From Labilithrix sp. (GTDB lineage: Bacteria > Myxococcota_A > Polyangia > Polyangiales > Polyangiaceae): a stretch of 64,000 bases of DNA. The position numbers and the translations under genes are program-made. Positions 3,419 through 24,367 of this stretch are shown here, piece by piece; the first letter of the stretch is position 1, and every line of letters starts with the position of its first letter. Under the pieces are notes generated by a model. It did not search any database and was not told the DNA's origin. It was given only the letters and a program-made list of their open reading frames with translations. The stretch spans positions 251,730-315,729 of the forward strand of contig JAXLYU010000014.1 of NCBI GenBank assembly GCA_046351255.1. The letters run 5' to 3'.

Positions 3419-4297
3419 CTACTTCGTTCCGGGGACGGCGACGAGCTCATCGATGTTCGGCTGGAGCGTGATCTCGATGCGACGGTTTCGCTGGCGCGCG
3501 GCGTCGTCGGTGTTGGGATTGACGGGATCGAACTCGCCGTAGCCCGCCGCGCTGAGCAGCTCGGGACGCATCCCTTCCTTCACCAGGAAGTGCACCACCT
3601 CGACCGCGCGCCCGTTCGAGAGCTCCCAGTTCGAAGGAAACCGAGGCGTGTGGATGGGCACGCTGTCGGTGTGGCCGGCCACCTGATAGCGCCGCTCGGA
3701 GATGGTCTTCAGCACGCCGGCGATCTGCTTGAGCGCCGTCATACCGGCAGGCTTGATGTCCGTCTTCGCGGTGTCGAAGAGGACGTCGTTCGCGAGCCGG
3801 AGCACCATGCGGCCCTCGCGGAGGACGATCTGGAGCTCGCCGGCGTCGATCATCTTCTGCAGCTTCAGCGCGAGCTGGCGGAAGAGCGCCGCTCGCGCGT
3901 CGGCCGCGGCCTGCGCCCTCCGCAGCTCCTCGAGGCGCGCCTTCGCCTCCTCGAGCGCGCTCGAGAGGAGCCCCTTCTCCTGGAGGAGCTTGTCCGCGTT
4001 CTTGCCGAGGCTCTCGAGCTCCTTGCGGAGCTGCGCGTCCTCCGCCGTCGCGCCGTCGAGCCGTCGCTGGAGCTCCTTCGCGTCGCCCTTCGCCGACGCG
4101 AGCTCCTGATCGCGCGCCGCGAGCTTCGCCGCGAGCTCCTTCGTGGCCGCGTTCAGCTCCGCGATGGTCGCGTCGCGCGCCGCGATTGACTTCGTCGAGC
4201 GGGCGACTGCCTCGTCGTACTTGCCCTGGGGGACGCACGCGCCGAGCAGGAGGAGGAGCGTGAGAGCGGCTTTCGAGAGGGAGCGCATGGCGAGCAC
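3419..4297 (-). CDS. OmpA/MotB-domain lipoprotein with N-terminal coiled coil
   Basis: Lipobox LLGAC. Coiled-coil, E/K/A-rich N-terminal half. C-terminal OmpA-like peptidoglycan-binding motifs (YQVAGHTDSVP...NRRIEITL). Confidence 0.85.
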   Translation of the reverse strand: MLAMRSLSKAALTLLLLLGACVPQGKYDEAVARSTKSIAARDATIAELNAATKELAAKLAARDQELASAKGDAKELQRRLDGATAEDAQLRKELESLGKNADKLLQEKGLLSSALEEAKARLEELRRAQAAADARAALFRQLALKLQKMIDAGELQIVLREGRMVLRLANDVLFDTAKTDIKPAGMTALKQIAGVLKTISERRYQVAGHTDSVPIHTPRFPSNWELSNGRAVEVVHFLVKEGMRPELLSAAGYGEFDPVNPNTDDAARQRNRRIEITLQPNIDELVAVPGTK

Positions 4298-4361
4298 GGA
4301 TGCAGGTTCGATGCCGCCGCGCCCCGGTCGAGGTATACCGTCGCGCGTGAACGAAGCGCCG

Positions 4362-5258
4362 ATGTCGCGACCGCGCGCGCATGCGCTCCTTCACTTCACG
4401 GTGCTCCTGTGGGGGACGACGGCGATCCTCGGCAAGAGCATCCACATCGCGGCGCTCCCGCTCGTGTTCTAGCGGGTCGTCCTCGTCACCGCGCTCATGG
4501 CCGGCGTCCTCGTCGCGCGGAAGGTGCCCTTCCGGGTGCCGCGCGCCCGGCTCGCGGAGCTCGGGGCGGCGGGGGTCCTCGTCGCGCTCCACTGGGTGCT
4601 CTTCTACGGCACGATCAAGCGCGCGGGCGTCACCGTCGCCGTGCTCTGCCTCTCGACGATCACGTTCTTCACCGCGCTCCTCGAGCCGCTCGTGTTCCGG
4701 CGTCGCGTTCGGCGGCACGAGCTGGCGCTCGGAGCGCTCGTGGTCGTCGGTGTGGTGCTGCTCCTTCGCCTCGAGGCCCACGCCGACACGACCGGCTACG
4801 CGATGGGGCTCGGGTCGGCCTTCTTCTCCGCCGCGTTCGGGACCTGGAACGGCAGCCTCGTCGCTCGCGAGCGGGCCGAGCGCGTGACGCTCTACGAGCT
4901 CGGCGCGGCCGCGGTCGCGTGCGGGGTGGCGTTCCCCCTGCTCGGAGGATTCGTCGCGCCGTGGGAGATCGACGCCCACGACTGGGCGCTCGTCTCGGTG
5001 CTCGCGGTCGCCTGCACGCTCCTGCCGTGGCTCTGGTCGCTCCGCGTGCTGAAGACGTTGTCTCCGTACACGGTCGCGATCTCGGTCTCGCTCGAGCCCG
5101 TCTACAGCATCGCTTTCGCCTATGCGCTCTGGCCGGCGGAGGAGCGCCTCCACCCGCGTTTCTACGCGGGCGCGAGCCTGCTCGTCGCGCTCATCGTCGC
5201 GAACGGAGCGCGGAAGGGCAGCGCCACGCCGGACCCCGTCGCGAGCTCGGGTCAGTAG
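4362..5258 (+). pseudogene. EamA/DMT-family transporter interrupted by an in-frame TAG at 4470-4472
   Basis: Track ORFs 4143..4472 and 4497..5258 are in the same frame, separated by a single stop. The N-terminal piece (LLHFTVLLWGTTAILGKS...ALPLVF*) and the C-terminal piece (RVVLVTAL...) together give a ~298-aa, 10-TM EamA-like protein. The stop sits where EamA proteins usually have Trp, so TGG->TAG is likely. Confidence 0.7.
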
Positions 5259-9347: not shown

Positions 9348-9448
9348 CCACCCGCGGCGCCGGCCGCTGGTACGCCTAACTCACGCGAGGGGGGCGGCTC
9401 GAGTTGGACGTCGCCACGACACGATGAGGCGAATTTCGTTTCGAAAGC

Positions 9449-9473
9449 GGCTGGGCTGGGCTGGGCTGGGCTG
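9449..9473. repeat. Pentanucleotide microsatellite (GGCTG)x5
   Basis: Read directly: ggctgggctgggctgggctgggctg. It lies in a lower-GC non-coding stretch between the WD40 gene and the transposase remnant. Confidence 0.9.
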
Positions 9474-9747
9474 ATTGGACCGGGTGCGAGTGAGGCTCGT
9501 GCGAGCTTCACTCCGATAAGGTGCCCCAGTACAAGTGGTGCTTCCGGGACAACGCTAACGTATCTGTTCAGTAGCGTCGAAACCGTACAGCAGCTTCGAT
9601 GCACGCCAAGTCCTGGCTATGTGTGCCCGCGCTACTCCAATACGCTGAACTCCTCGCGCCGCTTGCTCACGAACAGGTACGTGCAAGAGAGTTGGCTTTA
9701 ACCTGAACTCGTTTGGGTGCGGCTCCCATGGAACGCATCGATTCTCG

Positions 9748-10869
9748 TCATTCCACGCGCCGCAGGATGGGCTTGAGCGCCGGAATGGGTAGCGGCGGAG
9801 TCTCCGAGGCGTAGCGGGTGCGATGGTGGCGGGCATGTTCGCGGTCGAGGTGAAATGCCCAGTACGCGTCGAAGTCTCCGCTCGCGCGGAGAGCGCGGAG
9901 GCGAAGTACGGCCTCGGCTCCTGGAGTCGACCAGCGTGCGCCGGTCTTCTCCATGCGGTCTTTGACGAGGTAGCGACACACCCCCTCGATCACGCCGGTG
10001 GCGATCGGAAAGCCGGCCGCGAGCGCGCTGTTATAGGCGAGGAAACGCCTCACTCCGCGGAGGTAGCGCAGACACTTTCGTACCGGCTCGAGCTTCGTCG
10101 AATCGAGACTTCGTGCGGTGGCGTTGCGGCGAATATTCGTGCGCACTTTCGTGTGCTCGCCGCGGAGGAGCCACGCCAGGCGCTGCTGGACCCAGCTCTC
10201 GGCCTCCTTCGAACCGTCGGGATGGAACGCGTATGACGCTTTCCAGAGATATTCGAGCACGTGGATGAGGTCGACGATGATCGTGATCCGCACGTCGCGC
10301 TTTTTGGCGGCCTTCTTCACGAGACGAAGTTGATCGCGATTCCCGTCGACGAGCACGATCCAGGGACGGGCCTTCTGCGGATCGCGACGCAGAGCCTCGT
10401 CGAAGGCGTCGCTGATGACCTCCTCCGGCTCCTTCTCGAGACTCGCCCACACGAGCTTGTTCGTCGGTCGAGGTCGCTGGCGCTCCTTGGCTGCATCGCG
10501 AACGGGCCGCAGCTCGGTGAGGAGGTCTTGCAGCGTCCGGACATGCGGAGCGACGGTGTACACGGCCGCGACCTGCGCCATCCACTTGCGATGACGCTTC
10601 TCGCCCTTCGTCAGTCGTGTCTGAAGCCTGCGCGGGGTGGTCTCGGCCGCCTTCCGCGTTTCGGGACGCAGGTGCTCGCGCCGCATCGGAACGCCCTTGC
10701 CATCGAAGGTGAGGACCAAAAGGTCCGTCGTCTTCTCCGCGGCGAGCTCGCGTGCCGCGTAGAAGTCGTCGAAGTCCTGCGCTGCTCGAGCCGCGAGTTC
10801 CTCGACCTGCCGCTTGCCAATGCGCGCACCGGTTGTCGCGCTCAACGTCGCGGCGACCTCCTCGAACGC
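9748..10869 (-). pseudogene. 5'-truncated ISKra4-like (DDE) transposase gene, interrupted by the IS66 element
   Basis: C-terminal signature ...FPIATGVIEGVCRYLVKDRMEKTGARWS...DFDAYWAFH is typical of ISKra4-family transposases. The track ORF 9748..10980 owes its first 37 codons to IS66 sequence (12 codons from the 36-bp IR, 25 from IS66 interior). The native part starts at AFEEVAAT (about 10869). Confidence 0.6.
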
Positions 10870-10905
10870 GTACGCGCTGCGTTGACCCCGTCCTGGTGCG
10901 GGTGA
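10870..10905. repeat. IS66 terminal inverted repeat (left, 36 bp)
   Basis: Perfect inverted match to 13721-13756. Confidence 0.9.
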
Positions 10906-11151
10906 GGATCCGCGCGCAAGCTCCTGGTCATGAAGACGCAGGAGATCACGGAGTGGGTCACGGAGCTCGATCGCGCGCACGGGCTCGTTCGTGCCGTGGC
11001 CGATGCCGAGTCCGGGGAAGGCGCGAGTGCTGTCGCGCGCGAGGCGCTGGCGCTACTGTCTGCGCTGCACGCGCGGATGCTTCGCGCGGAGGTGCGGTCG
11101 GTCGTCTCGAGTTCGGCAGCGAGGACGTGAGCGGTGGCGTCGCGAATGCCG

Positions 11152-12960
11152 TCAGTCCGGAGAGATCTCTTGTTTCGCGGCGCGCGGGAGCGGCGCCGGG
11201 ACGGCGATGTCTCCGAGCTCGGGCTCGAGCTGCTTCGGGTCGAGCCGGCCGAGCGTGAGCGACCAGTACTTGGGAGCGAGCTCGAGGTACCGGTCTCGCG
11301 GCCAGTAAGGGAGGACGCGGATAATGTCGCGGAGGTAGAGTTCGGCGTCGATGCCGTGCAGCTGGCACGACGCGATGAGGGAAAAGAGGTTCGCGGCCGC
11401 GGTGGCGTGGTCGTCAGAGCCGAAGAAGAACCACGCGCGACGCCCGACCGCGATCGGCCTGACGGCGCGCTCGGAGTGGTTATTGGTCATTCGGAGCCGC
11501 CCGTCGTCGAGATAGCGGCGCAGCGCCTGCTCCTGCCGAACGACATATCCGAACGCGGTCGCGGCGAGGCCGCGCACGGCCTTGAGCCCTTCGTATCGAG
11601 TCTTCGCCCACGCGAAGAAGTCGTCGAGGAGCGGACGCGCGAGAAGCTGTCGGAGCTCGTGACGCCGTCGCGGCGGAAGAGCTGCCCACTGCGCCTCGAG
11701 CTCGAAGAGCTTGTGCATCCGGAGGAGCGCCTCTCGCGCCGCGGGGTCCTTTGCGACGGTGGCGGCCTCCCAGGCCCGCCGGCGCGCGTGCGACCAACAG
11801 CCAACTTCCTTCGGCGGAGTCTCGCCGGGGTCGCGCGCCTCACCGCGATAGAGAGCGTCGTAGATGCAGTGAGCGTCGGCTTGGATGTAGCCGCCGAATC
11901 CCCGAAACATCTCGCAGACCGCCTTGCTCGTGTGCTTCGGCTGGTACTCGAAGAAGATGTGGTCCTGGTCGGCAAGCACGACGAAGAAGTGCCCTTTGCG
12001 ACAGGCCCCCCGCGGACCACCCTTCACCGGCTCGGGCTGGATGCAGACGCCCGTCGCGTCGGTCGAGAGGCAGAAGGCGTCCTCCTTCGCCTCCTTCGCC
12101 ATCGCGTCGACGATGCATCCGAACGTGTTGCCCGCGTCCTCGGCGTACCGGCACATCACGCTGTCGTCGACCGGGCAGCCGTCCGCCCGCAGCATCTCCG
12201 AGAGGCGGTGGAACGGGATCCCGAACCGATACTTCGACGCCAGAATGTGCGCGATCAACGAGGGCGCGAGCAGCCCGCGCTTGAACAGCTCCTTCGGCAT
12301 CGGTGCCGTGATGATCTGGAAGCCGGTCTTCCGCCCGTGCTCGTCGACCTCGTCGACGACGTCTCCGCTTGCTCGCTCTGTCACGACCTCATTCTTGTAC
12401 TTCACGCGCGCGACGACCAGACGGATCGCGCCACCGCGACGATACGAGCGCCGACAACTCTCCTCGAAGCCGATCCGTTTCGCCTTTCCCTCGAGCGCGG
12501 GGTCGGGAATCTCGATGCGCTCCTCTGGAAGGTCCTCGTCGCGCAGATCTCGGCGTCCGGAACGATTTGGGCGCGGTCGACGGCCGCTCTCCGGCGGATC
12601 GTTGTCCGGCAGAAGCTCCGACAGCCCCGCGGTCTCGGCGACTTGCTGGACGATCGCGTCGAGCTTCTGCTTCGTCTCCGCGAACTCGATCTCGAGCTGC
12701 GTGACGTCGACGCGCTCGGCCCTCGCCTGGAAGATCCGCCGGCGGAGCAGCTCGACCTGCTCCTTCAGCTGCTCGTAGGCACGACGCAGCTTGTCGCGCT
12801 CGACCTTGACCACCGCGAGCTCCGACTCCTTGGTCGCGAGCGCGGTCCGGAGGAGTTCGACCTCGCGGCGGAGCGCTGACGCCTCGTCGCGGTGACCGCC
12901 GGCAAGCACGACGTTTCTCGTAGCGCGCGAAGATCGAGCTGTCGACCGACGACTGCGCAA
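11152..12960 (-). CDS. tnpC: IS66-family transposase TnpC
   Basis: 601 aa. N-terminal coiled coil / leucine zipper. Central ...CWSHARR... and C-terminal ...MTNNHSERAVRP...WFFFGSDDHA...LYLRDII... IS66 hallmarks. Confidence 0.9.
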   Translation of the reverse strand: MRSRRSTARSSRATRNVVLAGGHRDEASALRREVELLRTALATKESELAVVKVERDKLRRAYEQLKEQVELLRRRIFQARAERVDVTQLEIEFAETKQKLDAIVQQVAETAGLSELLPDNDPPESGRRPRPNRSGRRDLRDEDLPEERIEIPDPALEGKAKRIGFEESCRRSYRRGGAIRLVVARVKYKNEVVTERASGDVVDEVDEHGRKTGFQIITAPMPKELFKRGLLAPSLIAHILASKYRFGIPFHRLSEMLRADGCPVDDSVMCRYAEDAGNTFGCIVDAMAKEAKEDAFCLSTDATGVCIQPEPVKGGPRGACRKGHFFVVLADQDHIFFEYQPKHTSKAVCEMFRGFGGYIQADAHCIYDALYRGEARDPGETPPKEVGCWSHARRRAWEAATVAKDPAAREALLRMHKLFELEAQWAALPPRRRHELRQLLARPLLDDFFAWAKTRYEGLKAVRGLAATAFGYVVRQEQALRRYLDDGRLRMTNNHSERAVRPIAVGRRAWFFFGSDDHATAAANLFSLIASCQLHGIDAELYLRDIIRVLPYWPRDRYLELAPKYWSLTLGRLDPKQLEPELGDIAVPAPLPRAAKQEISPD

Positions 12961-12995
12961 TACACGATTATCGATCGCACCTTGTGCGCGAGCGC

Positions 12996-13346
12996 TCAGT
13001 GAATGCGTGGCCTTCGCGGGCGACGCGGAGCAGCGTCAACGTCGACGCCATCGAGGAGCGCCTCGAGCGTCGCGTCGTCGATCTCCACATGCCGTACTCC
13101 CTCGGCGGCACCTTCGGGAAGTCGGAAGGTGCCGCGGTCAAGTCGCTTGTAGAACTGGCACATTCCCGAGCCGTCGAAGAAGAGAATCTTCAGCGCGTCG
13201 CGGCGGCGCGAGTAGAAGAGAAAGAGCGCGCCGCTGCGGGCGTCGTACCCAATCTGCTCCTGCGCAATCCCCGATAGTCGGTCGAAGGAATACCGAAGAT
13301 CGATCGGCTCGAGCGCGACGAAGACCTGGACGCCGGAGGGGATCAC
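12996..13346 (-). CDS. tnpB: IS66 Orf2 (TnpB) accessory protein
   Basis: ~115 aa. ...LRYSFDRLSGIAQEQIGYDARSGALFLFYSRRRDALKILFFDGSGMCQFYKRLDRGTFRLP... IS66 Orf2 signature. Overlaps the tnpA stop by 4 nt. Confidence 0.9.
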   Translation of the reverse strand: MIPSGVQVFVALEPIDLRYSFDRLSGIAQEQIGYDARSGALFLFYSRRRDALKILFFDGSGMCQFYKRLDRGTFRLPEGAAEGVRHVEIDDATLEALLDGVDVDAAPRRPRRPRIH

Positions 13347-13696
13347 TTCTCGCCCCCGAGCGCGGCTACGACTTCGCGGAGGAGGCCGGGGTCGAAGCCC
13401 CGGCTCAGCGCGATGCGCGCCGTCCCGATCACGACGACGAGCTCGTCGTCTTCGCGACGACGTGCGACCGCGCTCGCCGCGTGGTCGTGTCGCCGGACGA
13501 CGCGGGCCATCGCCACTGTCGACTTCGGTGGCGCGCCGGCGATGGGGGGCTCTGCCTTCCGGCTCTTAAGCCGGCTCGCCCAGTAGCGGAGAGTCGACGC
13601 CTCGAAGTCGCCGTCTGCCGCGAAAGCATCCGCCGTCTTGCCGCTGGCGCGCCACGCCGTGACCCGATCCTTCCACCTCGCTTCGGTCGCTGTCAT
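13343..13696 (-). CDS. tnpA: IS66 Orf1 (TnpA) accessory protein
   Basis: ~117 aa first ORF of an IS66 unit (...ASGKTADAFAADGDFEASTLRYWASRLK...). Position and order (tnpA-tnpB-tnpC) are canonical. Confidence 0.8.
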   Translation of the reverse strand: MTATEARWKDRVTAWRASGKTADAFAADGDFEASTLRYWASRLKSRKAEPPIAGAPPKSTVAMARVVRRHDHAASAVARRREDDELVVVIGTARIALSRGFDPGLLREVVAALGGEK

Positions 13697-13720
13697 GCGC
13701 CTGACAATGACGCTCCAGCG

Positions 13721-13756
13721 TCACCCGCACCAGGACGGGGTCAACGCAGCGCGTAC
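13721..13756. repeat. IS66 terminal inverted repeat (right, 36 bp); contains the stop codon of the adjacent protease gene
   Basis: Reverse complement is identical to 10870-10905. Minus-strand reading ...CCG TAC GCG CTG CGT TGA gives P-Y-A-L-R-stop. Confidence 0.9.
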
Positions 13757-14556
13757 GGCGTTGGGGTCGGCGTGGGCGTGGGCGTGGGCGTGGGTGTCGG
13801 GGCGGGCGTGGGCGTCGGCGCGGGGGGCGGGGCCGGCGTCTGGGCCGCGATCTTTGCCTGGATCCAGCCGTAGAGCAGATCGACGCGCGCCGTGACCTGC
13901 GTGGACGCGCCCGCGCCCGAGTTGACCGCGACGAGCGTGTGCGTGCCGGTGAGGAACACCGGCCCGCCCGAGTCGCCGTGCTGGATGACGACCCCCGACG
14001 AATAGTCGTACGGATAGCCGATGCTCGCGCCGTCCGTCAGCGTGATGGGCGCGTCGTAGAGGCTATTCGTGACCGTGCCGTTGAGCACGCGACCGACGGA
14101 GAGCGCCTTCGCGCCGTTGGGCTGCTTCGCCTGTGCAAGCACCGGATACGACGCGAGCGTGATGGCCTCGGTGAGATAGACGAGACCGATGTCGTGATGC
14201 GCCGGATTGACAGTCGTGGCGCCGTTCTCCGCCCAGTCGTACGTCTCGCCCCTCGACGACTTCCGGTAGTTCGTACCGGCATAGACCTCCCACGAGACCA
14301 TGCCATCCACGCAATGCCCCGCCGTGAGCACGACCTTGGGCGCGATCAGGGTGGCCGAGCAGCTGTAACCCAGGCCACCGGTGCTCTTCATGTTCAGGAG
14401 CACCGCCTCTGGGTACGTCGCCGACGCCGGCACGCCTCCGATGATCGCCTCCATCACGGCCGAGGTGTTCTCCTCGTCTCTGGAATCGGTGACCTCGCCG
14501 GAACACGCCAGGAGGGATGCAAGAGCGACGATTCCGAGGCAGCGGTTTGGCTTCAT
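13741..14556 (-). CDS. Secreted trypsin-like (S1) serine protease lipoprotein with a C-terminal Pro-Thr linker; native C-terminus replaced by the IS66 IR
   Basis: Signal plus lipobox LLACSG. Catalytic His (TAGHC), Asp (HDIGL) and Ser (GDSGGP). (PT)n linker. The last residues YALR and the stop are encoded by the IS66 IR. Confidence 0.8.
   Translation of the reverse strand: MKPNRCLGIVALASLLACSGEVTDSRDEENTSAVMEAIIGGVPASATYPEAVLLNMKSTGGLGYSCSATLIAPKVVLTAGHCVDGMVSWEVYAGTNYRKSSRGETYDWAENGATTVNPAHHDIGLVYLTEAITLASYPVLAQAKQPNGAKALSVGRVLNGTVTNSLYDAPITLTDGASIGYPYDYSSGVVIQHGDSGGPVFLTGTHTLVAVNSGAGASTQVTARVDLLYGWIQAKIAAQTPAPPPAPTPTPAPTPTPTPTPTPTPTPYALR
13764..13822. repeat. Imperfect hexanucleotide repeat (GGCGTG)n encoding the (Pro-Thr)n linker on the minus strand
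   Basis: cgtgggcgtgggcgtgggcgtgggtgtcggggcgggcgtgggcgtcgg. This is coding repeat DNA, not a CRISPR array. Confidence 0.7.
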
Positions 14557-14660
14557 GCGGGTATGGGTCTCCGTCCCCAGAAACGGCTCGCCGCTGGACA
14601 TCTTCAACTCGAGCGTGAGACGCGGCGCGCCGCGCTCGGGAGGAGCCTCGCCCCGCGACG

Positions 14661-15542
14661 CTATCGCGCGTCGGTGAGCCAGAGCACGACCGCCGCGCCC
14701 ACCGCCACGACCCCGACGATGCTCACGACGGTCGAGACATCGGCCGCGCGCTGGGCATCGCGCGCGTGCTCGAGGCCGACGGGATCGGTGCATCGCAGGT
14801 CGCCGTCGCCGGCGCAGGTCTCCTTCGCGGCGCTCCAGTCCGACGCCGCGCGGATCCCGAAGAAGCCGCCCACGCCAAGACCGACGATGCCAAGAGCCCC
14901 GAGCCCCAGCGCGACCTTTCGGCGTGTGCCCATCGCCGGTCGCTCTTCGTTCGGCGTCGCGGGCGGAGGTGGCTTGATCGTCGGGACGAGCGCGAGCGCG
15001 GGCACCGTGATCGCGACCGTTCCTGGCTCCTTCAGCTCCACCTTCGAGCGCCAGTCGACGCGGCCGGACGCCGTCGCCTCGAGCGAATAGACCGAGGGGT
15101 CGAGCGGAACCGGCACACCGTAGAGCGACGGCTCGACCACCGCTCCGTCGCGACGCACCGTCACCGCTGCGTCCGAGGGAGTGACATCGATCTTCAAATA
15201 CGAGACTCGGGGACCGAGGGCGAGCGCACGATCCATCGCCGCTTGCGCGCGCTTGGCGTCGCCGATCCGGCGCGCGAACTCGCTGGCCTCCTTGAAGGTG
15301 CGTACCGCGCTCGCGGCGCGGCCGGCTTTGGCCTGGCAGTCTCCGAGGGCGAGGAGGGTGCCTGGCGCGGGCTCGACCTTGTGGCTCGCCTCGAGCTTGG
15401 CGCATGCCTCATCGAACTTGCCGGCATCGAGCGCCGTGAGCCCCTCATCGAAGAGCCGATCCGCCTCGCTCACGGGCCTCCCCTGCGCCGCTGCCGTGCC
15501 GCTGGTCGCGAGCAAGAGGAGGAGAAGACGTATGCGTTTCAC
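14661..15542 (-). CDS. Secreted TPR-like protein with a C-terminal transmembrane anchor
   Basis: Signal peptide MKRIRLLLLLLATSGTAAAQG. Helical TPR-like N-terminal region. Hydrophobic C-terminal segment. Its start overlaps the STK stop by 4 nt. Confidence 0.55.
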   Translation of the reverse strand: MKRIRLLLLLLATSGTAAAQGRPVSEADRLFDEGLTALDAGKFDEACAKLEASHKVEPAPGTLLALGDCQAKAGRAASAVRTFKEASEFARRIGDAKRAQAAMDRALALGPRVSYLKIDVTPSDAAVTVRRDGAVVEPSLYGVPVPLDPSVYSLEATASGRVDWRSKVELKEPGTVAITVPALALVPTIKPPPPATPNEERPAMGTRRKVALGLGALGIVGLGVGGFFGIRAASDWSAAKETCAGDGDLRCTDPVGLEHARDAQRAADVSTVVSIVGVVAVGAAVVLWLTDAR

Positions 15543-17080
15543 CAGCGCCTCCGATACATGTCCTCACCGCTCGACGCCGAGGGGGCGGGCGGCGCCGCGG
15601 GCCTCGGCGCCGCGACGGCTCTCGGCTTCGCGCTCGCAGCGATGGGCGATATGGGGGAGCTGGGGGATACGGGCGAGACGGGCGGAGGCACCGCGCTCGG
15701 CGGCGGCTCGAGCGATGTCTCGGGGACCGGCGCGCCGCTCCGCTCCGGCTCCGGCACGACGGCCGGGATCTCGTTCGCGGGCGAGGTCGCGCTCTGCGCG
15801 AGAGCCTGCGGTGCAGGACGCTTGACCGCGAGCGCGAAGATCACGGCACCGCTGACGAGGACCCCGCCGAGCACGGCGCCGGCCAGCGCGACGGCGAGCC
15901 CCGTTCGCGACTTCGGGGTCGGGGCGGGGAGGACTCCGCCCATCGACACGGGCGTGATCGCGTGCGTGACGGGCATGCCGGTCTGGCCCGAAGGCGACTC
16001 GCGCATGGGCTTCGTTCGATCGATCTCCCGTTCGATGGTGCGCGTGCGCTCTTGCTCGGCGAGGGACGGTGGGGTCGCCGCGGGGGTACGCGGCTGGGAT
16101 TCGCTGCCCGTGAAGCTCTCGAGCTCCTTCACGTAGCTCGCCCGATCGCGAAGGGCGCTCTGCGCGACCACCGCGACCCACTCGCCCACCTCGCTCGCGA
16201 GCGCGGGGCGCACCACGGCCTCGATCGCTCGTGCGGCGTCGCGGGCGGTGGGATATCGATCGCCGGGCTCCTTCGAGAGGAGCTTCAGGACGATCGCGTC
16301 GAGCTCCGGCGGCACGTGGGGCGCGACCGTGCTCGGCGCAGAGACGACGTTCTCCAGGACGAGGCCGATGAGCGAGCCCTCGTCCTCCGCCGAGAAGAGG
16401 CGCTTGCGAGTCAGGGTCTCCCAGAGGACGACGCCGGCGGCGTATACGTCGATGAGGCGAGTCGAAGGCTTCGCCCGGAGCTGCTCCGGGGACATGTAAG
16501 CGAGCTTGCCCTTGATCTGTCCGGAGCGCGTCGACTGAAGCCGATTCGATGCCTTCGCGACGCCGAAGTCGAGCACGCGCGCGACGCCATCGACGCCGAC
16601 CACCACGTTCTGCGGGGACACGTCGCGATGCACGATGCCGAGCGGCTCGCCCGTGTCGCTGGTCGCTTCGTGCGCCGCGTGCAGACCGTGGAGCATGCCC
16701 GTGATCACGGCGCTGACGATCGGGAGCGGGATCGGCGCATCGCGCGGGAGCATGTCCCGCACGAGTCGAGAGAGCGACTGCCCGTGCACGTACTCCATGA
16801 CGAGCAGGAGCTCGCCTGGCGCCGCGACGACATCGAGCGTCTGGACCACGTTCGGATGCTGAATGCGGGCCGCGATCCGCGCCTCGTCGACGAGCATCGC
16901 GACGAAGTCGGGGTCGCTCGAGAACTGAGCGTGGAGTCGCTTGATGGCGACGGTGCGCGCGAAGCCGACCGCGCCGAGCAGGCGGCCGAGATGGACGGTC
17001 GCCATGCCGCCGGCGGCGAGCGGGCGGTGGATCGCGTAGCGGCCCACGGTGATGGGCGTCGACGCCTCAGGGCCCATGTC
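15539..17080 (-). CDS. Ser/Thr protein kinase with a Pro-rich linker and a TM segment
   Basis: GxGxxG-like AAGGMATVHLG. VAIK. HRDVSPQN. DFG. SPEQ. C-terminal hydrophobic helix and P/A-rich tail. The start was chosen at MGPEAS. Confidence 0.85.
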   Translation of the reverse strand, partial: DMGPEASTPITVGRYAIHRPLAAGGMATVHLGRLLGAVGFARTVAIKRLHAQFSSDPDFVAMLVDEARIAARIQHPNVVQTLDVVAAPGELLLVMEYVHGQSLSRLVRDMLPRDAPIPLPIVSAVITGMLHGLHAAHEATSDTGEPLGIVHRDVSPQNVVVGVDGVARVLDFGVAKASNRLQSTRSGQIKGKLAYMSPEQLRAKPSTRLIDVYAAGVVLWETLTRKRLFSAEDEGSLIGLVLENVVSAPSTVAPHVPPELDAIVLKLLSKEPGDRYPTARDAARAIEAVVRPALASEVGEWVAVVAQSALRDRASYVKELESFTGSESQPRTPAATPPSLAEQERTRTIEREIDRTKPMRESPSGQTGMPVTHAITPVSMGGVLPAPTPKSRTGLAVALAGAVLGGVLVSGAVIFALAVKRPAPQALAQSATSPANEIPAVVPEPERSGAPVPETSLEPPPSAVPPPVSPVSPSSPISPIAASAKPRAVAAPRPAAPPAPSASSGEDMYRRRW

Positions 17081-19040
17081 GCAAGATCGCTCCTTCCGCG
17101 CCGGCTCCCCAGAGGACGCCGTCGCGATCGAACACGAGCATGGCGAGGTTCGGGGCACCGTCGAGCCGCGCCCACTCCTGCCCGTCCCAGCGTCGCGGTC
17201 CGGCGTTCGGCCCGTTGACCCACACGTCGTTGCCGTGCACCGCGACCGAGGACCAGGTCACGTTTGGCTGGCCCGACGGCGGCACCGGCGTGTGCGGCTC
17301 CCACTTCTCTCCGTTCCAGCGCGCCACGAGGTCTGGTCCCGCGACCCACACGCTCTTGTTCGAGCTCCCGCCGATCGCGAGGAGCTGCGTGACGGGCGAT
17401 GGCGACGGATCGATCCGGTGCCATCCGCTCCCGTCGTGCTGGAGCACGATGCTGCCGGGGGCGACGGCCCACGCGTCCCGCGTCTCGGGATCGATCCAGA
17501 CCGCGCTGAGCTCCTTGCCGTCGGTCGGCGAGTCCACGACGAACGTCTTCCCGTCGAAGCGAGCGGCGAAGGGCCTCGTGTTGCTTCCGCCTTCGGTCTG
17601 CTCGAGCCCGACCGCCCAGATCGTCTTCGACGCCGCGTCACCTCGGATCTGCCTCAGCAAGACCGAGGGAGGTGCGTCGTAGACGGTCTCGAAGTCCTTT
17701 CCGTTCGAGCGAATGATGTCCTGCGCGACGAGCCATTGCTCCGTCGCGCTGGCGAGCCAGCACGACTGCGTGGTCCCGAGCTCGTTGCCGTACGAGGTCT
17801 CCGTGTAGGCGCCGTCGCGCTTTCGCAGCACGACGGCGGTCTGTCCCGCCGTCGCCACGCCGACCGCCAGCGCGAGGCCGTCGGCGATGCAGACGTCGGC
17901 GAGGTTCGAGTACACGCCGCCGGTCTCGGGCCATCGTCGCCAGCCATCGCCTTCGACGCGTGCGATCGCGCCATGGGCGCCGACCGCGATCACCTCGTGG
18001 TCGCCATAGGGAGCGAGCGCGTTGTACTGGACGTTGTCGGGGAGGGTCATCGGCGCGGACAGCTCGGTGCCGCGAAGGCGCACCGCCGTCGCGGGCAAGG
18101 TCTGGCCCATCACCCAGACCTCGGAGCTCGTGGCCGCGGCCGCCGCGACTCCACCCGCAAAGGGCTGCGTGACGACATGGCCCCAGCTGCCGTTGAGCAG
18201 CCGCGAGAAGGAGAGGCTCGTCCCGTCCTGACCCACGAGCCAGAGGATCGATGACGGTCCCGGTCCCTCGGCGATGAGGCCGATCTGGGAGTTGCACGAC
18301 CCTGCTCCAAACGTCTCGCAGCTCCCCGACACCCACGACCCCTGCCAGTGTGCGAGGCGATTGCCGCTCGAGGCCCAGACATCATTCGGCCCGGTTCCGC
18401 GAATCGACTGCAGCATGGGAGGGCCGGCGGCCGCGTCCCAGGGCGCGCCGATATCGTCCCAGGTCGATCCGCCGCTGGGGAGACGCAGCGCGACCGCGCT
18501 CGGTGTTGGTGGGCTCGTGGCGCTTCCGACGACCCAGACATCGCCACCGGTCCCCCACACGTCGGAGAGCTGGAGGGCGCTTGGAGTGGTCGCGCGCAGG
18601 CTCTCTGCCCACGAGCCGCCATCGTGCCGGAGGACGGCGATATTCGTTCCGGGCTCCGGGAGCGAGAAGGCCTCCACGCCGCTCGACGCCCACACCTTTC
18701 GCAGGCCGAAGCGCTCCTCCGTCAGCACCTTGAACGAGGTGCCGTCCCAGTGGAGCGTCGCGCCGTCTCGTCCGACGGCCCAGATGTCCGTCGGCGACGA
18801 CGCCCACACGCTGACGAGGTCGCTGCCCTGAGGAAGAGGGTTCTCCCAGCACCATCCCTTGCAAGGCGAGAGCGCGGAGCCGCCGCCCTCGGCGCCGCCG
18901 TCGCCTCCCGGCGCGACGACATCAGGCCCACCGTCCGTCGTGCGTGCATCCTCGGCCGCGTCGCCGATGCCGAGGATCAGGCGGCACCCGTAGCTCGAGA
19001 CCGCCAATGCGATCGCGGCCGTGATCACGCGGCGCTGCAT
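17067..19040 (-). CDS. Secreted beta-propeller-like repeat protein
   Basis: Signal peptide MQRRVITAAIALAVSSYGC. Many ...DVWAVG.../...VWVVG... W/G-rich blade-like repeats. Function unknown. Confidence 0.6.
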   Translation of the reverse strand: MQRRVITAAIALAVSSYGCRLILGIGDAAEDARTTDGGPDVVAPGGDGGAEGGGSALSPCKGWCWENPLPQGSDLVSVWASSPTDIWAVGRDGATLHWDGTSFKVLTEERFGLRKVWASSGVEAFSLPEPGTNIAVLRHDGGSWAESLRATTPSALQLSDVWGTGGDVWVVGSATSPPTPSAVALRLPSGGSTWDDIGAPWDAAAGPPMLQSIRGTGPNDVWASSGNRLAHWQGSWVSGSCETFGAGSCNSQIGLIAEGPGPSSILWLVGQDGTSLSFSRLLNGSWGHVVTQPFAGGVAAAAATSSEVWVMGQTLPATAVRLRGTELSAPMTLPDNVQYNALAPYGDHEVIAVGAHGAIARVEGDGWRRWPETGGVYSNLADVCIADGLALAVGVATAGQTAVVLRKRDGAYTETSYGNELGTTQSCWLASATEQWLVAQDIIRSNGKDFETVYDAPPSVLLRQIRGDAASKTIWAVGLEQTEGGSNTRPFAARFDGKTFVVDSPTDGKELSAVWIDPETRDAWAVAPGSIVLQHDGSGWHRIDPSPSPVTQLLAIGGSSNKSVWVAGPDLVARWNGEKWEPHTPVPPSGQPNVTWSSVAVHGNDVWVNGPNAGPRRWDGQEWARLDGAPNLAMLVFDRDGVLWGAGAEGAILRHGP

Positions 19041-19264
19041 GGGTCTAGACGTCCCCCATGCGTATGACGATACCTCGCCGCCGCCATCCCAAGGGCCGAA
19101 AAGCTCGGCCGTGAGAAGAGCCGAGAAAGGCGGCAAGAGCGTGAGGTCGAGCGACTGACCAGGGAAAAGCTTCGAGCTCGTCCGTTCTGTCGAATTGCGT
19201 CGAGTCTTCGATCGCCGATATCTGTGGACGATCCCCCCTCTCGACCCTTGGTCGAAGAACGGCA

Positions 19265-20386
19265 TTGCCCATGAAGATGTACTCGATTGGTGTCGGTTTA
19301 CTCGTAGCTCTGATCGTCGCCCCTGGCTGTGGGTCCGATCCCGAGCCCAAGACGAAGGTGCGAATCGGTCAGAATCCCTGGGCGGGGTGGGCAGCGATCG
19401 ACGTCGCGAAGGCGAAGGGCTTCTTCGACGAGGAGGGGCTCGACGTCGAAGTCGTTCACGTCACCACGGATCAAGAAGAGGCCACGTTGCTCCAGGGGGG
19501 ACGCATCGACATCGGCATCGGAATGATCGGTACGTGGATCGGCTACGCGAACGTCGGCGACACCGAGCCGCTCACGATCGTCGCCGAGACGGACTGGTCG
19601 TATGGAGGGGATCAGATCATCACCAAGCGCACCGTCGACACGACGAAGCTCGCCGGAAAGCCCATCGCGGTTTACCTCGAGCAGCCGAGCGTCTCGTTCT
19701 TCCTCCAGCAGTATCTGTCGGAGCTCCCGACCCCGCTCAAGCTCTCGGACATCAAGCTCGTCGAGCTCGAGGCGTCTGCGATCGCCGACGAGTTCGAGAA
19801 GGGGACGTACGAGGTCACGGTCAACTACGAGCCAGACTCCCTCCGGCAGCTATCGGCGACCGCGGGCGGAGCTCGCGTGAAGACGAGCCGCTCGTATCCG
19901 GGAGTCATCCCGGAGGGCTTCGCGGTCCGCACGTCCGCGCTCGGCAAGTCGCTCTCGCGCGACACCGTCACGAAGGCCCTCCGCGGTTGGCTCAAGGCGG
20001 TCGACTGGGCTTACGGCCCGAACGGCAATGGTCAGACGGCGGATCCGGCACACTACGAGGAGTTCAAGTCGATCCTGCGCAATCAGACGTTCGCAGAGAG
20101 CGGCACGCCCGCCGAGCTGACGGACGCCGAGATCGACGGCATCATCCGCGGCGTGCACGTCCACCCTCGCGCGCTCTGGACCAAGGTGAACGGACCTTCC
20201 ACGGGCGCGAAGGTCGGTCGCTTCGACGCGGCAGACAACGACGTCCCCCAGCCCCAGACGGACGGTCAGCCGCTGGCGGACTTCTTCGTGGAGATGAGGG
20301 ACTTCATGAATACGGACACGTCGACGCCCCTCGTCGAAGGGCGCATCACCATCGACACGTCGCTCGCCCTTGACGCTGCGAAGTGA
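19265..20386 (+). CDS. ABC-transporter substrate-binding lipoprotein (NMT1/THI5 / SsuA-TauA-like), orphan
   Basis: Lipobox VAPGCGS. NMT1-like fold features (GQNPWAGWAAIDVAKAKGFFDEEGLDVEV). No permease or ATPase is adjacent. Confidence 0.75.
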   Translation: MPMKMYSIGVGLLVALIVAPGCGSDPEPKTKVRIGQNPWAGWAAIDVAKAKGFFDEEGLDVEVVHVTTDQEEATLLQGGRIDIGIGMIGTWIGYANVGDTEPLTIVAETDWSYGGDQIITKRTVDTTKLAGKPIAVYLEQPSVSFFLQQYLSELPTPLKLSDIKLVELEASAIADEFEKGTYEVTVNYEPDSLRQLSATAGGARVKTSRSYPGVIPEGFAVRTSALGKSLSRDTVTKALRGWLKAVDWAYGPNGNGQTADPAHYEEFKSILRNQTFAESGTPAELTDAEIDGIIRGVHVHPRALWTKVNGPSTGAKVGRFDAADNDVPQPQTDGQPLADFFVEMRDFMNTDTSTPLVEGRITIDTSLALDAAK

Positions 20387-20398
20387 ACGATTCGGCCC

Positions 20399-21451
20399 TC
20401 ATCTCGAGAGCCAGCTCGTGACGTGATCCCATACGGACGTGTCGGTCAGGAGATCGATGTGCCCGCAGCTCGGCGCCACGTAGCGATGTGACTCCGGGAA
20501 TTCCAGGCCGTGGGTGCCGTGCTCACCGAGCGCGCTGGAGCGTGGAACGAGCGGGTCACGGTCGGCGGCGACCGCGTAACAAGCGACCTCGGGGGGGAGC
20601 GGGACGGGAGTCCGGGCATCGCTCGCGAGCTCGAAGCGGTCGCGATCTTGCCAGTCCTCGTCGACGACGTTGCCAAAACGAAGATCGGTGACCCCCGCGC
20701 TTCGCAAGCGGCCGAGGCCCGCGATCGGGGCGCTGTAGCGGGTCACGCCGAGCAGCGTCTCGAGCCAGTTGCCGACCCGCTCGAGCGGGGCGCCGTGATG
20801 CGGAGTTCCGAGGAACACGATCGTGCGGAGCTTGCTCCGCCAGAGCGCGTCCGCGCCGGCGTAGTGGCACGCGCTCCGCGTGACGAGCCCGCCCATGCTG
20901 TGCGCGACGATGGAGACCTCCTCCACCGGCACGGGCCAGTCGGCGACGAGCTTCTCCAGCATCGCAGAGAGCCGGCGCCCATTCACCGAGACGTGGAGTC
21001 CCGAGTTGTAGTCGAAATGAACGCGCGTGAACCCGTCGGCACGGGCGCTCTGCCAGGACCGCGCATTCATCGAGGAGCCGTGTACGAGGACCAGGATCTT
21101 CCCCGTCGCGGGAGCCTCGTCGGCGCGTTGCAGGCGCTCCGCGATCGCGAGTGGATTTCCGGTCGCGGCGAGATGATCGCCGAGCACGCCATTGAGCGCG
21201 GCCAGGAACAGCTCTCGCTCTGGTCCCTCGGCGAGCTCGCCGAGCACGGGCGTCGCCAGCGAGAGGCCGGCCTCGAGCGCGCCGCCGACGAGCGACGTGA
21301 TCCCGCGAATGCTCGCGTATACGGGGGCGCTGAAGAGCCGCGCCGGCGCGCCCCCGATCGCGCCATGCGTGGCCTGCACGACGTCCGTGACTCCCTTGGT
21401 CGCGGTGACCGCGAGCCGCACCATTCCTCGGAGCCCATCGCCGCGCTTCAT
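20399..21451 (-). CDS. Alpha/beta hydrolase (lipase/esterase-like, PGAP1/DUF676-type)
   Basis: GxSxG nucleophile elbow VAHSMGGL. LVHG... oxyanion region. The start at MKRGDGL overlaps the upstream stop (ATGA). Confidence 0.75.
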   Translation of the reverse strand: MKRGDGLRGMVRLAVTATKGVTDVVQATHGAIGGAPARLFSAPVYASIRGITSLVGGALEAGLSLATPVLGELAEGPERELFLAALNGVLGDHLAATGNPLAIAERLQRADEAPATGKILVLVHGSSMNARSWQSARADGFTRVHFDYNSGLHVSVNGRRLSAMLEKLVADWPVPVEEVSIVAHSMGGLVTRSACHYAGADALWRSKLRTIVFLGTPHHGAPLERVGNWLETLLGVTRYSAPIAGLGRLRSAGVTDLRFGNVVDEDWQDRDRFELASDARTPVPLPPEVACYAVAADRDPLVPRSSALGEHGTHGLEFPESHRYVAPSCGHIDLLTDTSVWDHVTSWLSR

Positions 21452-22362
21452 CAGGGGGTGAGCGCCGAGAGGTAGCTCGTGACGAGGGCCCGCCCGCTCG
21501 TGAAGTCGGTGTAGTCGTTCTTCAGGTCGTACATGCGAGGATTGTGCGGCCGCGTATTGATGAGTGCATCGTGCATGCACCAGAGGCCGCCGTTGACGGA
21601 GCGGTCGCAGCCGCTGCGGTCGGCGATGACCTGGAAGCCGCCGCCGAGCGAGGCGTAGCTCGCGCCGAGGGATTTCATCCCGCCGGCGTTGTGCGACTCG
21701 AGACGGATGACGCGGTCGTAGGCCCAGACGAAATACGCATGGGCGAAGCGGCGCACGAACGCGGAGTCGCCGGGGCCGCCGCCGTCGAGATCGAAATACG
21801 AGATCTTCGACGGCGTGGCGGCGGGGAGGCCGCCGGTGCCGATCTTCACGTAGCGAAAGAGCTCGTCCGCGACGTATGTCCCGCTCGAGTGGGCGATGAC
21901 CGCGATCGAAGACGCGGCCGCCGCGATGCCGTTCGCGCCGAGGTGGGCGGCGAGCCGGCTATTTTCGATCTCGTGATTCTGATATCCCGATTGATTCGGG
22001 CCCTTCACCGCGTAGAGATGCCCGAGGCCGAGCGCGGCGCCCTTCACGCGATAGAGCTCGTTGCACCAGCGCTCGACCCACTCGAGCTGCGCGGTGTAGC
22101 CGCCGTAGATGATGACGACGTTCGAACCCGCGCCGATGCGCTTGTACGCGACGCCCGCGCCCACGCTCGTCCACGGGGCGTTCGCCACCGCGTCATCGGC
22201 CTCCTCGACGAGCGGCGTGTCTGCCTCTTGCGGCTCGGGCTCCGGGATCTCGAAGGCTGCGCTCGCCGTCGCGCTCGACGTCGCCGCCTCGTCTTCCTCG
22301 GCGGGCGCCATGCAGGCCGCGAGGAAGAGCGCACCGGCGAGGGTGAGCGACCGCCGTTTCAT
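21451..22362 (-). CDS. Secreted lipase-like hydrolase
   Basis: Signal peptide MKRRSLTLAGALFLAACMA. Nucleophile-elbow-like IAHSSGTYV. Acidic pro-region. Confidence 0.6.
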   Translation of the reverse strand: MKRRSLTLAGALFLAACMAPAEEDEAATSSATASAAFEIPEPEPQEADTPLVEEADDAVANAPWTSVGAGVAYKRIGAGSNVVIIYGGYTAQLEWVERWCNELYRVKGAALGLGHLYAVKGPNQSGYQNHEIENSRLAAHLGANGIAAAASSIAVIAHSSGTYVADELFRYVKIGTGGLPAATPSKISYFDLDGGGPGDSAFVRRFAHAYFVWAYDRVIRLESHNAGGMKSLGASYASLGGGFQVIADRSGCDRSVNGGLWCMHDALINTRPHNPRMYDLKNDYTDFTSGRALVTSYLSALTP

Positions 22363-22440
22363 CGCGCGGGAGTCTCGGCGGCGCGTCCGACGGCCGCAAG
22401 ATGATCCGATCGAGCATGCGCGTCTCACGCGCATCTCGCC

Positions 22441-23385
22441 TCAGGAGGGCGGATCGTCCTTGCGGTCGAGGAAGGCCTGCAGCGCGTCGACGAAGGTGCC
22501 CGGGCGCTCGCGGTGCGGGTAATGACCACAACGCGCGAAGCACGCGAGCGTCGCGCCGGGGATGGTGCGCTCGGCTTCGATGCCGTGCTCGATCGGGATG
22601 ATCGGGTCCGAGTCGCCCCAGAAGAGGCCGATGGGCGGGATCTCGGGGATCTCGTGCGCGTGCTGGTGGAAGCCGCGGCGCTGGCCCTTGAGATCGATGA
22701 CGTCCCGCACGGTGCGGGCGAACGCGCGCGCGGTGCCGAGGCGGCCGTTCTGCAGCGAGAGCTTCACGAGCTCGCGCGTCGAGTACACGCCGCGGATGGC
22801 GGTCTGCAGGGCCACGAACGTGCCCGTCGCCATGAAGGGCTGGCCGAGACGCTCCACCAAGAACGGCGTCGACGCGAGGCGAAGCGCCATCGTGACCTCG
22901 CGGCCGAGACCGCCCGCCGAGACGAGGCCGACCTTGCGCACGCGATGCCACGGGTAGAGCAGCATCCACTGCGCGACGCCACCGCCATAGGAGTGACCCA
23001 CCACGTCGACCTGCGGGACACGCAGCTCCTCGAGCCAGCGCGCGATGGTGCGCGCGTGGAAGTCGAGCGAGTAGTCGACATCGGGGCGGCTCGACAGACC
23101 GTGGCCGCAGAGATCCGGCACGAGGACGCGGCGGCTCCGCGCGAGCGACGGGAGGATCTTCGACCACGTGAGGTGCGAGTCGCCGAGGCCATGCAGGAGG
23201 ACGAGCGGCGTGCCCGGACCATCGCCCGCTTCGACCCAGTGCACCTTCACGCCGTTGGCGCGAACCGTTCGTCCGGTCGGGGAGAGGAGACGGGTCAGCA
23301 CGGGGAGCTGGGTCCCATACGCGCGATCGGCGAGCGCGTAAATCGTGGATGTTCCTGGTGGAAGGGAGCGTAAAACCCCATCCAC
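22441..23385 (-). CDS. Alpha/beta-fold hydrolase (epoxide hydrolase / haloalkane dehalogenase-like)
   Basis: LVLLHGLGDS (HGxG region). Nucleophile elbow VGHSYGGGVA. C-terminal ...GHYPHRE... catalytic His region. Confidence 0.8.
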   Translation of the reverse strand: MDGVLRSLPPGTSTIYALADRAYGTQLPVLTRLLSPTGRTVRANGVKVHWVEAGDGPGTPLVLLHGLGDSHLTWSKILPSLARSRRVLVPDLCGHGLSSRPDVDYSLDFHARTIARWLEELRVPQVDVVGHSYGGGVAQWMLLYPWHRVRKVGLVSAGGLGREVTMALRLASTPFLVERLGQPFMATGTFVALQTAIRGVYSTRELVKLSLQNGRLGTARAFARTVRDVIDLKGQRRGFHQHAHEIPEIPPIGLFWGDSDPIIPIEHGIEAERTIPGATLACFARCGHYPHRERPGTFVDALQAFLDRKDDPPS

Positions 23386-23743
23386 CGCCGCTGCAGTGCG
23401 CTACGGAATACGCACCAAAATGGCTCGTATTTTCGTGACTGGCTCGGCCGACGGGGAGCGAAGAGCGCGCCGCGGCGACCCGCCGTCGTCTCCCGCGCGC
23501 CGAGCACGTGGTCGTGGGCGACGTCGCGAGCGTCGCGATCATGCACGACGTCGCCATCGGGCAGGACCCGCTGATCGCGCTCTGCGCGGAGCTTTCGGGG
23601 CTCCCGCTCTCTCCCTAGTTGCCATATCGAAGATTCCTTCGGGTTCAGCGAACTGCGGCCTGGAAGAGCTTCCGGCCATCGCACTTCGGACATACCCTGG
23701 AGGTCTTCATGGACCCCAGCGTATCCGAGCGGGTGAGCGAGAG

Positions 23744-24355
23744 ATGAAGCGGTATGTCGCCGTCGCCGGCACCATCGGGTCGGGCAAGAGCTCGCTCGTC
23801 GGGTGGCTCGTCAAGCGCTACGGCCTCACGCCTTACTACGAGCCCAACGACGAGAATCCATACCTCGCCGACTTCTATGCCGACATGAAGGCGTGGGCCT
23901 TCCACTCGCAGCTCTTCTTCCTCTCGCACAAGCTCACGCTGCATCAGGAGCTGCTCGCGAGCTCGAAGCCCGCCGTCATCGATCGCACCATCTACGAGGA
24001 CGCCGAGATCTTCGCGCGCAACGCGCGGAGCCAGCGGTACATCTCCGCGCGCGACTGGAGGGTGTACGAGCGCCTCTACGAGGGCATCAAGAAGACGCTC
24101 CCGCCGCCCGACGTGCTCATCGCCGTCACGTGCAGCCTCCCGGCCACCCGGAAGCGCATCGCGCGTCGCGGTCGTGACATGGAACAGGCGATCCCGGCCG
24201 CGTATCTCCGCCGGCTCCACAGGCTCTACGAGGAGTGGTTCGCCAGCTACGACCTCGGACCGATCGTCCGGATCGACACGACGAATCTGGATTACGTCGA
24301 GAACCTCATCGATCTCATCGAATTGCAACGCACCCTCGACAAGGTCCTCGCGTAG
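23744..24355 (+). CDS. Deoxynucleoside kinase (dNK/dCK/dGK family)
   Basis: P-loop AGTIGSGKSS. ERS-like ...DRTIYED... and LID region RIARRGRDMEQ, typical of the dNK family. ATG at 23744 preceded by a gagcgagag RBS-like stretch. Confidence 0.8.
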   Translation: MKRYVAVAGTIGSGKSSLVGWLVKRYGLTPYYEPNDENPYLADFYADMKAWAFHSQLFFLSHKLTLHQELLASSKPAVIDRTIYEDAEIFARNARSQRYISARDWRVYERLYEGIKKTLPPPDVLIAVTCSLPATRKRIARRGRDMEQAIPAAYLRRLHRLYEEWFASYDLGPIVRIDTTNLDYVENLIDLIELQRTLDKVLA

Positions 24356-24367
24356 TACGATCCGAGC

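Follow-up and report, generated by a model that had tools for sequence, protein, structure and literature searches.

The stretch of DNA analysed here (the window, 64 kb from a metagenome-assembled genome (MAG) of Labilithrix sp.) contains an insertion sequence (IS) of the IS66 family, flanked on one side by the remnant of an ISKra4-family element and on the other by the truncated gene of a secreted trypsin-like (S1) protease. Both neighbouring open reading frames (ORFs) cross the boundary of the IS and take part of their coding sequence from it. The deposited proteins MFO0740238-245 of this MAG (MFO0740244 excepted) map one to one onto ORFs of the window. The locus comprises the following features, in order of position.

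9715..10869, minus strand: remnant of an ISKra4-family element, comprising its 3' 1155 bp, with the outer terminal repeat GGGTGCGGCTCCCAT intact at 9715.
9748..10980, minus strand: chimeric ORF of 410 amino acids (aa), in which 37 IS66 codons (10870-10980) are in frame with 373 native ISKra4 codons.
10862..10869, no strand assigned: surviving copy of an 8-bp target duplication, TCGAACGC, ascribed to the entry of IS66 into ISKra4.
10870..13756, minus strand: IS66-family insertion sequence of 2887 bp, bounded by a perfect 36-nt repeat.
10870..10905, plus strand: IRR, the terminal inverted repeat at the tnpC end, beginning GTACGCGCTGCG.
10930..11130, plus strand: ORF of 66 aa between tnpC and IRR, antisense to the tnpC 3' region (MFO0740240.1, hypothetical protein).
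11152..12909, minus strand: tnpC, a DDE transposase of 585 aa as deposited (MFO0740241.1; PF03050, PF13817, PF13007).
12996..13346, minus strand: tnpB, 116 aa (MFO0740242.1; PF05717, E value 5e-28; NF033819, 89.5 bits).
13343..13696, minus strand: tnpA, 117 aa (NCBIfam IS66 TnpA NF047593, 40.8 bits against a cut-off of 28).
13721..13756, minus strand: IRL, the terminal inverted repeat at the tnpA end and the source of YALR and TGA in the protease ORF.
13741..14556, minus strand: ORF of the truncated trypsin-like (S1) protease (PF00089), with 271 aa when read from the ATG at 14556.
13757..13839, minus strand: coding region of the Pro-Thr/Pro-Ala linker of the protease, interrupted at 13756/13757.

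The two arms of the inverted repeat, at 36 nt each, are 100% complementary (37 nt when one flanking base is added by the tool), and the repeat has two matches and no others in the 64-kb window, where none was expected from 100 shuffles. Between them, the GTG start of tnpB overlaps the stop of tnpA (GTGA), and the tnpC product covers positions 2-283 of the 284 in the PF03050 profile (E value 7e-58) and scores 247.6 bits with NF033517, the model of the IS66 transposase, against a cut-off of 180. The matches of all three genes to their family models are full length and above the curated cut-offs, although the tnpA product was deposited as a hypothetical protein (MFO0740243.1) despite passing the NCBIfam cut-off for IS66 TnpA. 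A DDE transposase of the IS66 type (TnpC), tnpA and tnpB upstream of tnpC, and terminal repeats around a unit of ~2.5-3 kb are all present; an 8-bp target-site duplication surrounds the element in two metagenome contigs described below (L014 and L016), and is missing at the window copy. The element has each defining feature of the IS66 family that was tested and is an unnamed member of that family, not IS66 itself. Captured members of the family measure 2731-2829 bp and have inverted repeats of 22-35 nt (PMC3281130). Among species-representative genomes, the nearest TnpC is about 75% identical, and an exact search for the inverted repeat returned no match. The termini begin with GTACGCGCTGC, and an identical terminus is found in related IS66 elements from other Myxococcota MAGs (L040 and L041). 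The 66-aa ORF is called by gene finders in every copy of the element; it matches no known family, lacks a counterpart in IS66 relatives whose TnpC is 45-75% identical, and is probably not a conserved gene.

On the tnpC side the IS adjoins the ISKra4 remnant. The ends of the ISKra4 element were defined from two complete elements (L027 and L029), and the related strains L006-L010, which do not carry it, stop matching the window at 9714. The chimeric ORF begins 111 nt inside the IS and has been deposited as an 'ISKra4 family transposase' (MFO0740239.1). Its match to the ISKra4 equivalog profile (NCBIfam NF033572; 263 bits against a cut-off of 205) is confined to ORF residues 38-369 (130-421 of the 422 profile positions). 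Full-length ISKra4 relatives comprise 515-516 aa, and tblastn with one of these, P0125, aligns its residues 144-515 to window positions 10869-9751; the remnant encodes transposase residues ~144-516, and the first ~143 codons are gone. The window holds neither a full-length transposase nor both terminal repeats, the end opposite to 9715 being absent from it, and this piece is not a functional ISKra4 element.

On the tnpA side, the protease ORF (for which there is an alternative ATG at 14601) consists of 267 native residues followed by IS-encoded YALR and a stop. On the minus strand the junction reads ...ACG CC/G TAC GCG CTG CGT TGA, the slash marking the edge of the IS, so that the frame enters the IS at 13756, and the IS contributes the final base of the last Pro codon, the four codons for Tyr-Ala-Leu-Arg, and TGA. 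The trypsin domain is recognised by PF00089 (E value 1e-14; 55 bits against a cut-off of 20.6), the protease is a genuine S1 peptidase, and the residues His81, Asp122 and Ser196, the last within GDSGGP, are invariant in the homologue alignment. The protein also includes a signal peptide with an LLAC lipobox-like motif, and the Pro-Thr linker. Exact-protein look-ups found no match for the truncated protease, with six alternative starts, or for the protein of the intact allele. These readings bear out the initial annotation, which, from the letters alone, had described a perfect 36-bp inverted repeat delimiting a 2.89-kb IS66 unit with intact tnpA, tnpB and tnpC, a 5'-truncated ISKra4-like gene whose first 37 apparent codons are IS66 sequence, and a protease ORF that receives its last four codons (Y-A-L-R) and its TGA from the repeat.

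The initial annotation had also proposed that the native C-terminal domain of the protease was lost, and that uninterrupted alleles of both interrupted genes should be sought; both points are borne out by contigs of near-identical strains. Contig L025, from the same sample as L016, is 99.95% identical to window positions 17559-13751 over 3809 nt, and runs through the junction (...ccaacgcc/gacgccgcc...) into an intact protease of 394 aa. A noisy, long-read-style contig (L003) is collinear with window positions 13751-24843 and carries the same intact gene, the linker continuing likewise. Up to the junction, the window protease is identical to the intact allele save for one residue, and 112 C-terminal residues are missing, i.e., the remainder of the linker and a four-cysteine domain of ~100 aa that is conserved in homologues. 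This C-terminal beta-sandwich, present after the linker in the intact allele and absent from the window ORF, was searched for in the 64-kb window and not found there.

Pfam does not recognise the lost domain, and the Pfam PPC model itself is not significant. A profile built from the domain, however, matches the collagen-binding domains of clostridial collagenases (ColG/ColH; 5iku, E value 2e-5). The best structural matches of its AlphaFold model (pLDDT 96.5) are the ColG collagen-binding domain (1nqd; TM 0.77, E value 2e-5) and a pre-peptidase C-terminal domain (5sv5). Both by sequence profile and by modelled fold, the domain matches a collagen-binding/PPC-like beta-sandwich. Since it retains its catalytic domain and export signal, the truncated protease is plausibly still produced and active, but lacking its binding or pre-peptidase module. 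In L025, a second, divergent trypsin-like gene (4282-5202) follows the intact protease; it is absent from the window, and would thus have been lost or moved in the same event. The closest non-allelic homologue of the protease (81% aa identity) lies in L001 (4737-7905), between an alpha/beta-hydrolase gene and a gene of 293 aa. This locus was considered as an orthologous, uninterrupted protease locus and rejected, since its neighbours map to window positions 21451-23400, where their homologues are directly adjacent with no protease between them. The L001 protease, being a paralogous or relocated copy, did not serve as a reference allele; members of this protease family seem to be moved or duplicated from one locus to another.

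The 8-bp flanks of the window IS66 differ (tcgaacgc and ggcgttgg), as the initial annotation had pointed out, and no direct repeat of at least 5 nt was found at the flanks when either boundary was shifted by up to 4 nt. Two MEGAHIT contigs, L014 (ERZ27248705) and L016 (ERZ27248706), have the identical IS66 within the same ISKra4 relic; their match to the window, at 100% identity, extends over 2999 and 3181 nt, respectively, and takes in 112 and 294 nt of ISKra4. In both, a perfect 8-bp duplication, GCGTTCGA (window positions 10862-10869 in reverse complement), lies on either side of the IS, whose tnpA side continues into ISKra4 residues 63-146. When the IS and one duplicate are removed in silico, a single open ISKra4 frame is restored, which aligns to residues 44-515 of a full-length relative. 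L014 and L016 thus hold the simple nested insertion with its duplication. Compared with them, the window keeps the original flank and one copy of the duplication on the tnpC side, and differs on the tnpA side alone, where the protease linker has taken the place of the N-terminal part of ISKra4. The ISKra4 copy in L014 (1-1365) keeps its left terminal repeat (at about position 935) and its 5' leader, but ~300 bp of unrelated sequence stand in place of codons 1-62, so that this element was already dead before the IS66 events. Beyond the left repeat, the L014 flank has a markedly lower G+C content (by eye) and does not match the continuation of the empty site in L006.

These parental sequences bear directly on the plainest account of the locus, namely that the IS inserted, without making a duplication, at a place where a stump of ISKra4 already adjoined a truncated protease gene. 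That account would explain the missing duplication in the window and nothing else. The element does make an 8-bp duplication in L014 and L016, as do tested members of the family (PMC3281130 Table 2; PMC6778807), and one copy of that duplication is kept on the ISKra4 side of the window. Moreover, in the near-identical strains each flank continues into its own gene and not into the other flank. An insertion without duplication is already contradicted by these observations and is highly improbable, in line with the view of the initial annotation that the missing duplication points away from a simple insertion; a collapse introduced by the assembler, considered below, is the rival that this argument leaves standing.

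Near-identical Labilithrix strains are polymorphic for the element, which is currently active. At least 20 metagenome contigs contain copies with 99.7-100% identity, there are at least eight different flanks at the tnpA end, and many runs have unitigs made up of nothing but the IS. Three of the five complete short-read contigs of this IS (L005, L017 and L018) have mismatched flanks, as has the related IS66 element L040. The flanks of L005 weakly resemble the ISKra4 flank, but this resemblance found no support at the protein level and was set aside. Another copy, in the noisy long-read contig L024, has CTGTG on both sides, and this contig is too error-ridden for a duplication to be scored. In L004 (223-1149, minus strand), a further IS66 copy lies next to or within an ORF with IS66-TnpC-like motifs (by eye only), and the copies in L017, L018 and L023 adjoin a common palindromic repeat, GCCGCTGATCGGGATCAGCGG; from these cases, the IS tends to occur in repeat- and IS-rich DNA. 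A different IS66-family element, with ~40-55% aa identity to that of the window in tblastx segments, is present in L003 at about 15700-18400, roughly 5 kb downstream of the intact protease, where the gene calls are fragmented by sequencing errors.

Taken together, we consider it probable that the window represents a derived state, in which an IS66 element nested in ISKra4 had its tnpA end later joined to the protease linker. The active, multicopy element would first have inserted into an already decaying ISKra4 element of a Labilithrix genome. In the lineage of the MAG, the DNA beside the tnpA end would later have been replaced, leaving this end joined to the Pro-Thr linker of the secreted protease. 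Two routes might lead there. A second IS66 copy may have entered the linker and then undergone homologous recombination with the ISKra4-borne copy, or the resident copy may itself have transposed intramolecularly into the linker, giving an adjacent deletion or inversion. By either route, a single IS with unrelated flanks would result, together with deletion or inversion of the DNA between, and the sequence does not separate the recombination route from the intramolecular one, nor deletion from inversion. The parental protease allele and the parental ISKra4::IS66 insertion have both been found, L025 and L016 coming from the same sample. Furthermore, the junction coincides exactly with the terminus of the IS, so that there must be real DNA in which the linker is joined to an IS66 end. 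That both junctions are on one DNA molecule, and the order in which the steps took place, are what we infer from this evidence.

Several observations weigh against this reconstruction. The linkage of both junctions on one molecule rests on a metagenome assembly, and the mismatched flanks of L005, L017 and L018 imply either frequent rearrangement or frequent mis-joins by assemblers. Neither the sequence lost on the protease side nor the N-terminal part of ISKra4 was found anywhere in the 64-kb window, so that a deletion is indistinguishable from an inversion of more than 50 kb. In addition, the continuations of the two flanks in related strains (L006 on the left, L003 on the protease side) show no overlap within ~9.5 kb on each side, and the size of a deletion, if any, is therefore not fixed.

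The same observations may be accommodated by a collapse during assembly. Under this explanation, the genome, or a pair of co-occurring strains, carried two ordinary IS66 insertions, the first in ISKra4 and the second in the protease linker, which were threaded into one; each would have had its own 8-bp duplication, that of the linker copy being CCAACGCC, and the left flank of one would have been joined to the right flank of the other. The window is a MAG sequence, and the multiple copies of the IS, at 100% identity, cannot be told apart with short reads. The mismatched flanks in three of the five complete short-read contigs, and in L040, also speak for such a collapse, as does the parental junction between the N-terminal part of ISKra4 and IS66 in public samples that hold the same strain. 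However, two copies of equal depth would normally break a contig, and here they are bridged within 367,415 bp. The reciprocal junction CGCAGCGCGTAC/CCAACGCCGACGCCGCC (the tnpC end of IS66, then the C-terminal part of the protease) is absent from all retrieved contigs, a search for it by way of the 66-aa ORF having returned only contigs of the IS alone, and there is one deposited accession for each IS66 protein of the MAG. None of these counterpoints is decisive. An Rfam and whole-window repeat scan gave no clue to the type of assembly. On balance, we regard a collapse as unlikely; were it to apply, both chimeric ORFs would still be real, and only the inference that the missing duplication implies a rearrangement would fall.

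Returning to a true rearrangement as the preferred origin, we tentatively suggest a more specific possibility, i.e., that the window and the contigs L014, L016 and L025 form a natural before-and-after pair, in which a single resident IS66 made a one-ended attack on its own chromosome and deleted or inverted the intervening DNA. The mode of movement of the IS66 family appears to be still poorly defined. If the suggestion is correct, the pair would provide sequence-level evidence on how elements of this family move, and an example of a protease that is still secreted but has lost its substrate-binding or pre-peptidase domain.

Three further observations concern the window and its relatives. Compared with the window, the strains L006-L010 have 209 additional bp at 9362/9363 (L006 1668-1876), which include a stretch of 77 bp repeated at 87% identity 4 kb away (L006 5862-5938), and which may be a small repeat or miniature inverted-repeat transposable element. 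The next 350 bp of the window, up to the ISKra4 end (9363-9714), are ~95% identical to the related strains, as against 99.5% for the gene just before. At 48609-48848, imperfect repeats rich in GAG and GAC encode a highly acidic Asp/Glu stretch inside a gene.

For annotation, the result means that two proteins of the locus are chimeric, MFO0740239.1 with a false N-terminus and the protease with a false C-terminus, and that neither would be recognised as such without comparison of alleles. For the quality control of MAGs, an IS with hybrid flanks in a long contig marks either a real rearrangement or a mis-join, and is hence a useful point to check. In biological terms, this is a small and ordinary case of IS-driven gene decay, in which one secreted protease of a large family has had its binding or pre-peptidase domain removed. 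Nested insertions, IS copies with hybrid flanks, and start or stop codons supplied by an IS are all well known, and the finding is correct but ordinary; its practical value is that it flags two chimeric proteins and a MAG junction that deserves a check at the level of the reads.

When compared with known systems, the element resembles IS66 of Agrobacterium, IS679, and ISPpa5/ISPpa7 in the tnpA-tnpB-tnpC layout, the IS66-type DDE TnpC and the multicopy state, as well as in its length (~2.7-2.9 kb), its long terminal inverted repeats and its 8-bp duplication, here seen in L014 and L016. It differs from members of the family in the extra, non-conserved 66-aa antisense ORF and in termini that start GTACGCG, whereas GTAAGCG is the typical start of an IS66-family terminus. 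The ISKra4 piece shares with its family (NF033572) a strong equivalog match over the C-terminal three quarters and, with L027 and L029, one intact terminal repeat; it differs in being a remnant without the first ~143 codons and the other end, whose apparent start is IS66 sequence. Among the Polyangiales, secreted S1 proteases with a C-terminal PPC/collagen-binding-like domain are found as homologues of 350-460 aa with the same layout of signal peptide, trypsin domain and linker, whereas the window protease ends within the linker, without the beta-sandwich domain of ~100 aa that its own intact allele has.

The closest parallel to the proposed rearrangement is a 270-kb deletion in the plasmid pAt15955 of Agrobacterium tumefaciens, after which one IS66 remained "with distinct flanking duplications", and which the authors attributed to homologous recombination between directly oriented IS66 copies (PMC6778807). 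There, experiments on a single strain demonstrated the product as well as the two parental copies, whereas here the parental copy in the linker is unobserved and the product comes from a metagenome assembly. The two cases are alike in having a single IS66 at the site of the rearrangement with two different flanking 8-bp duplications.

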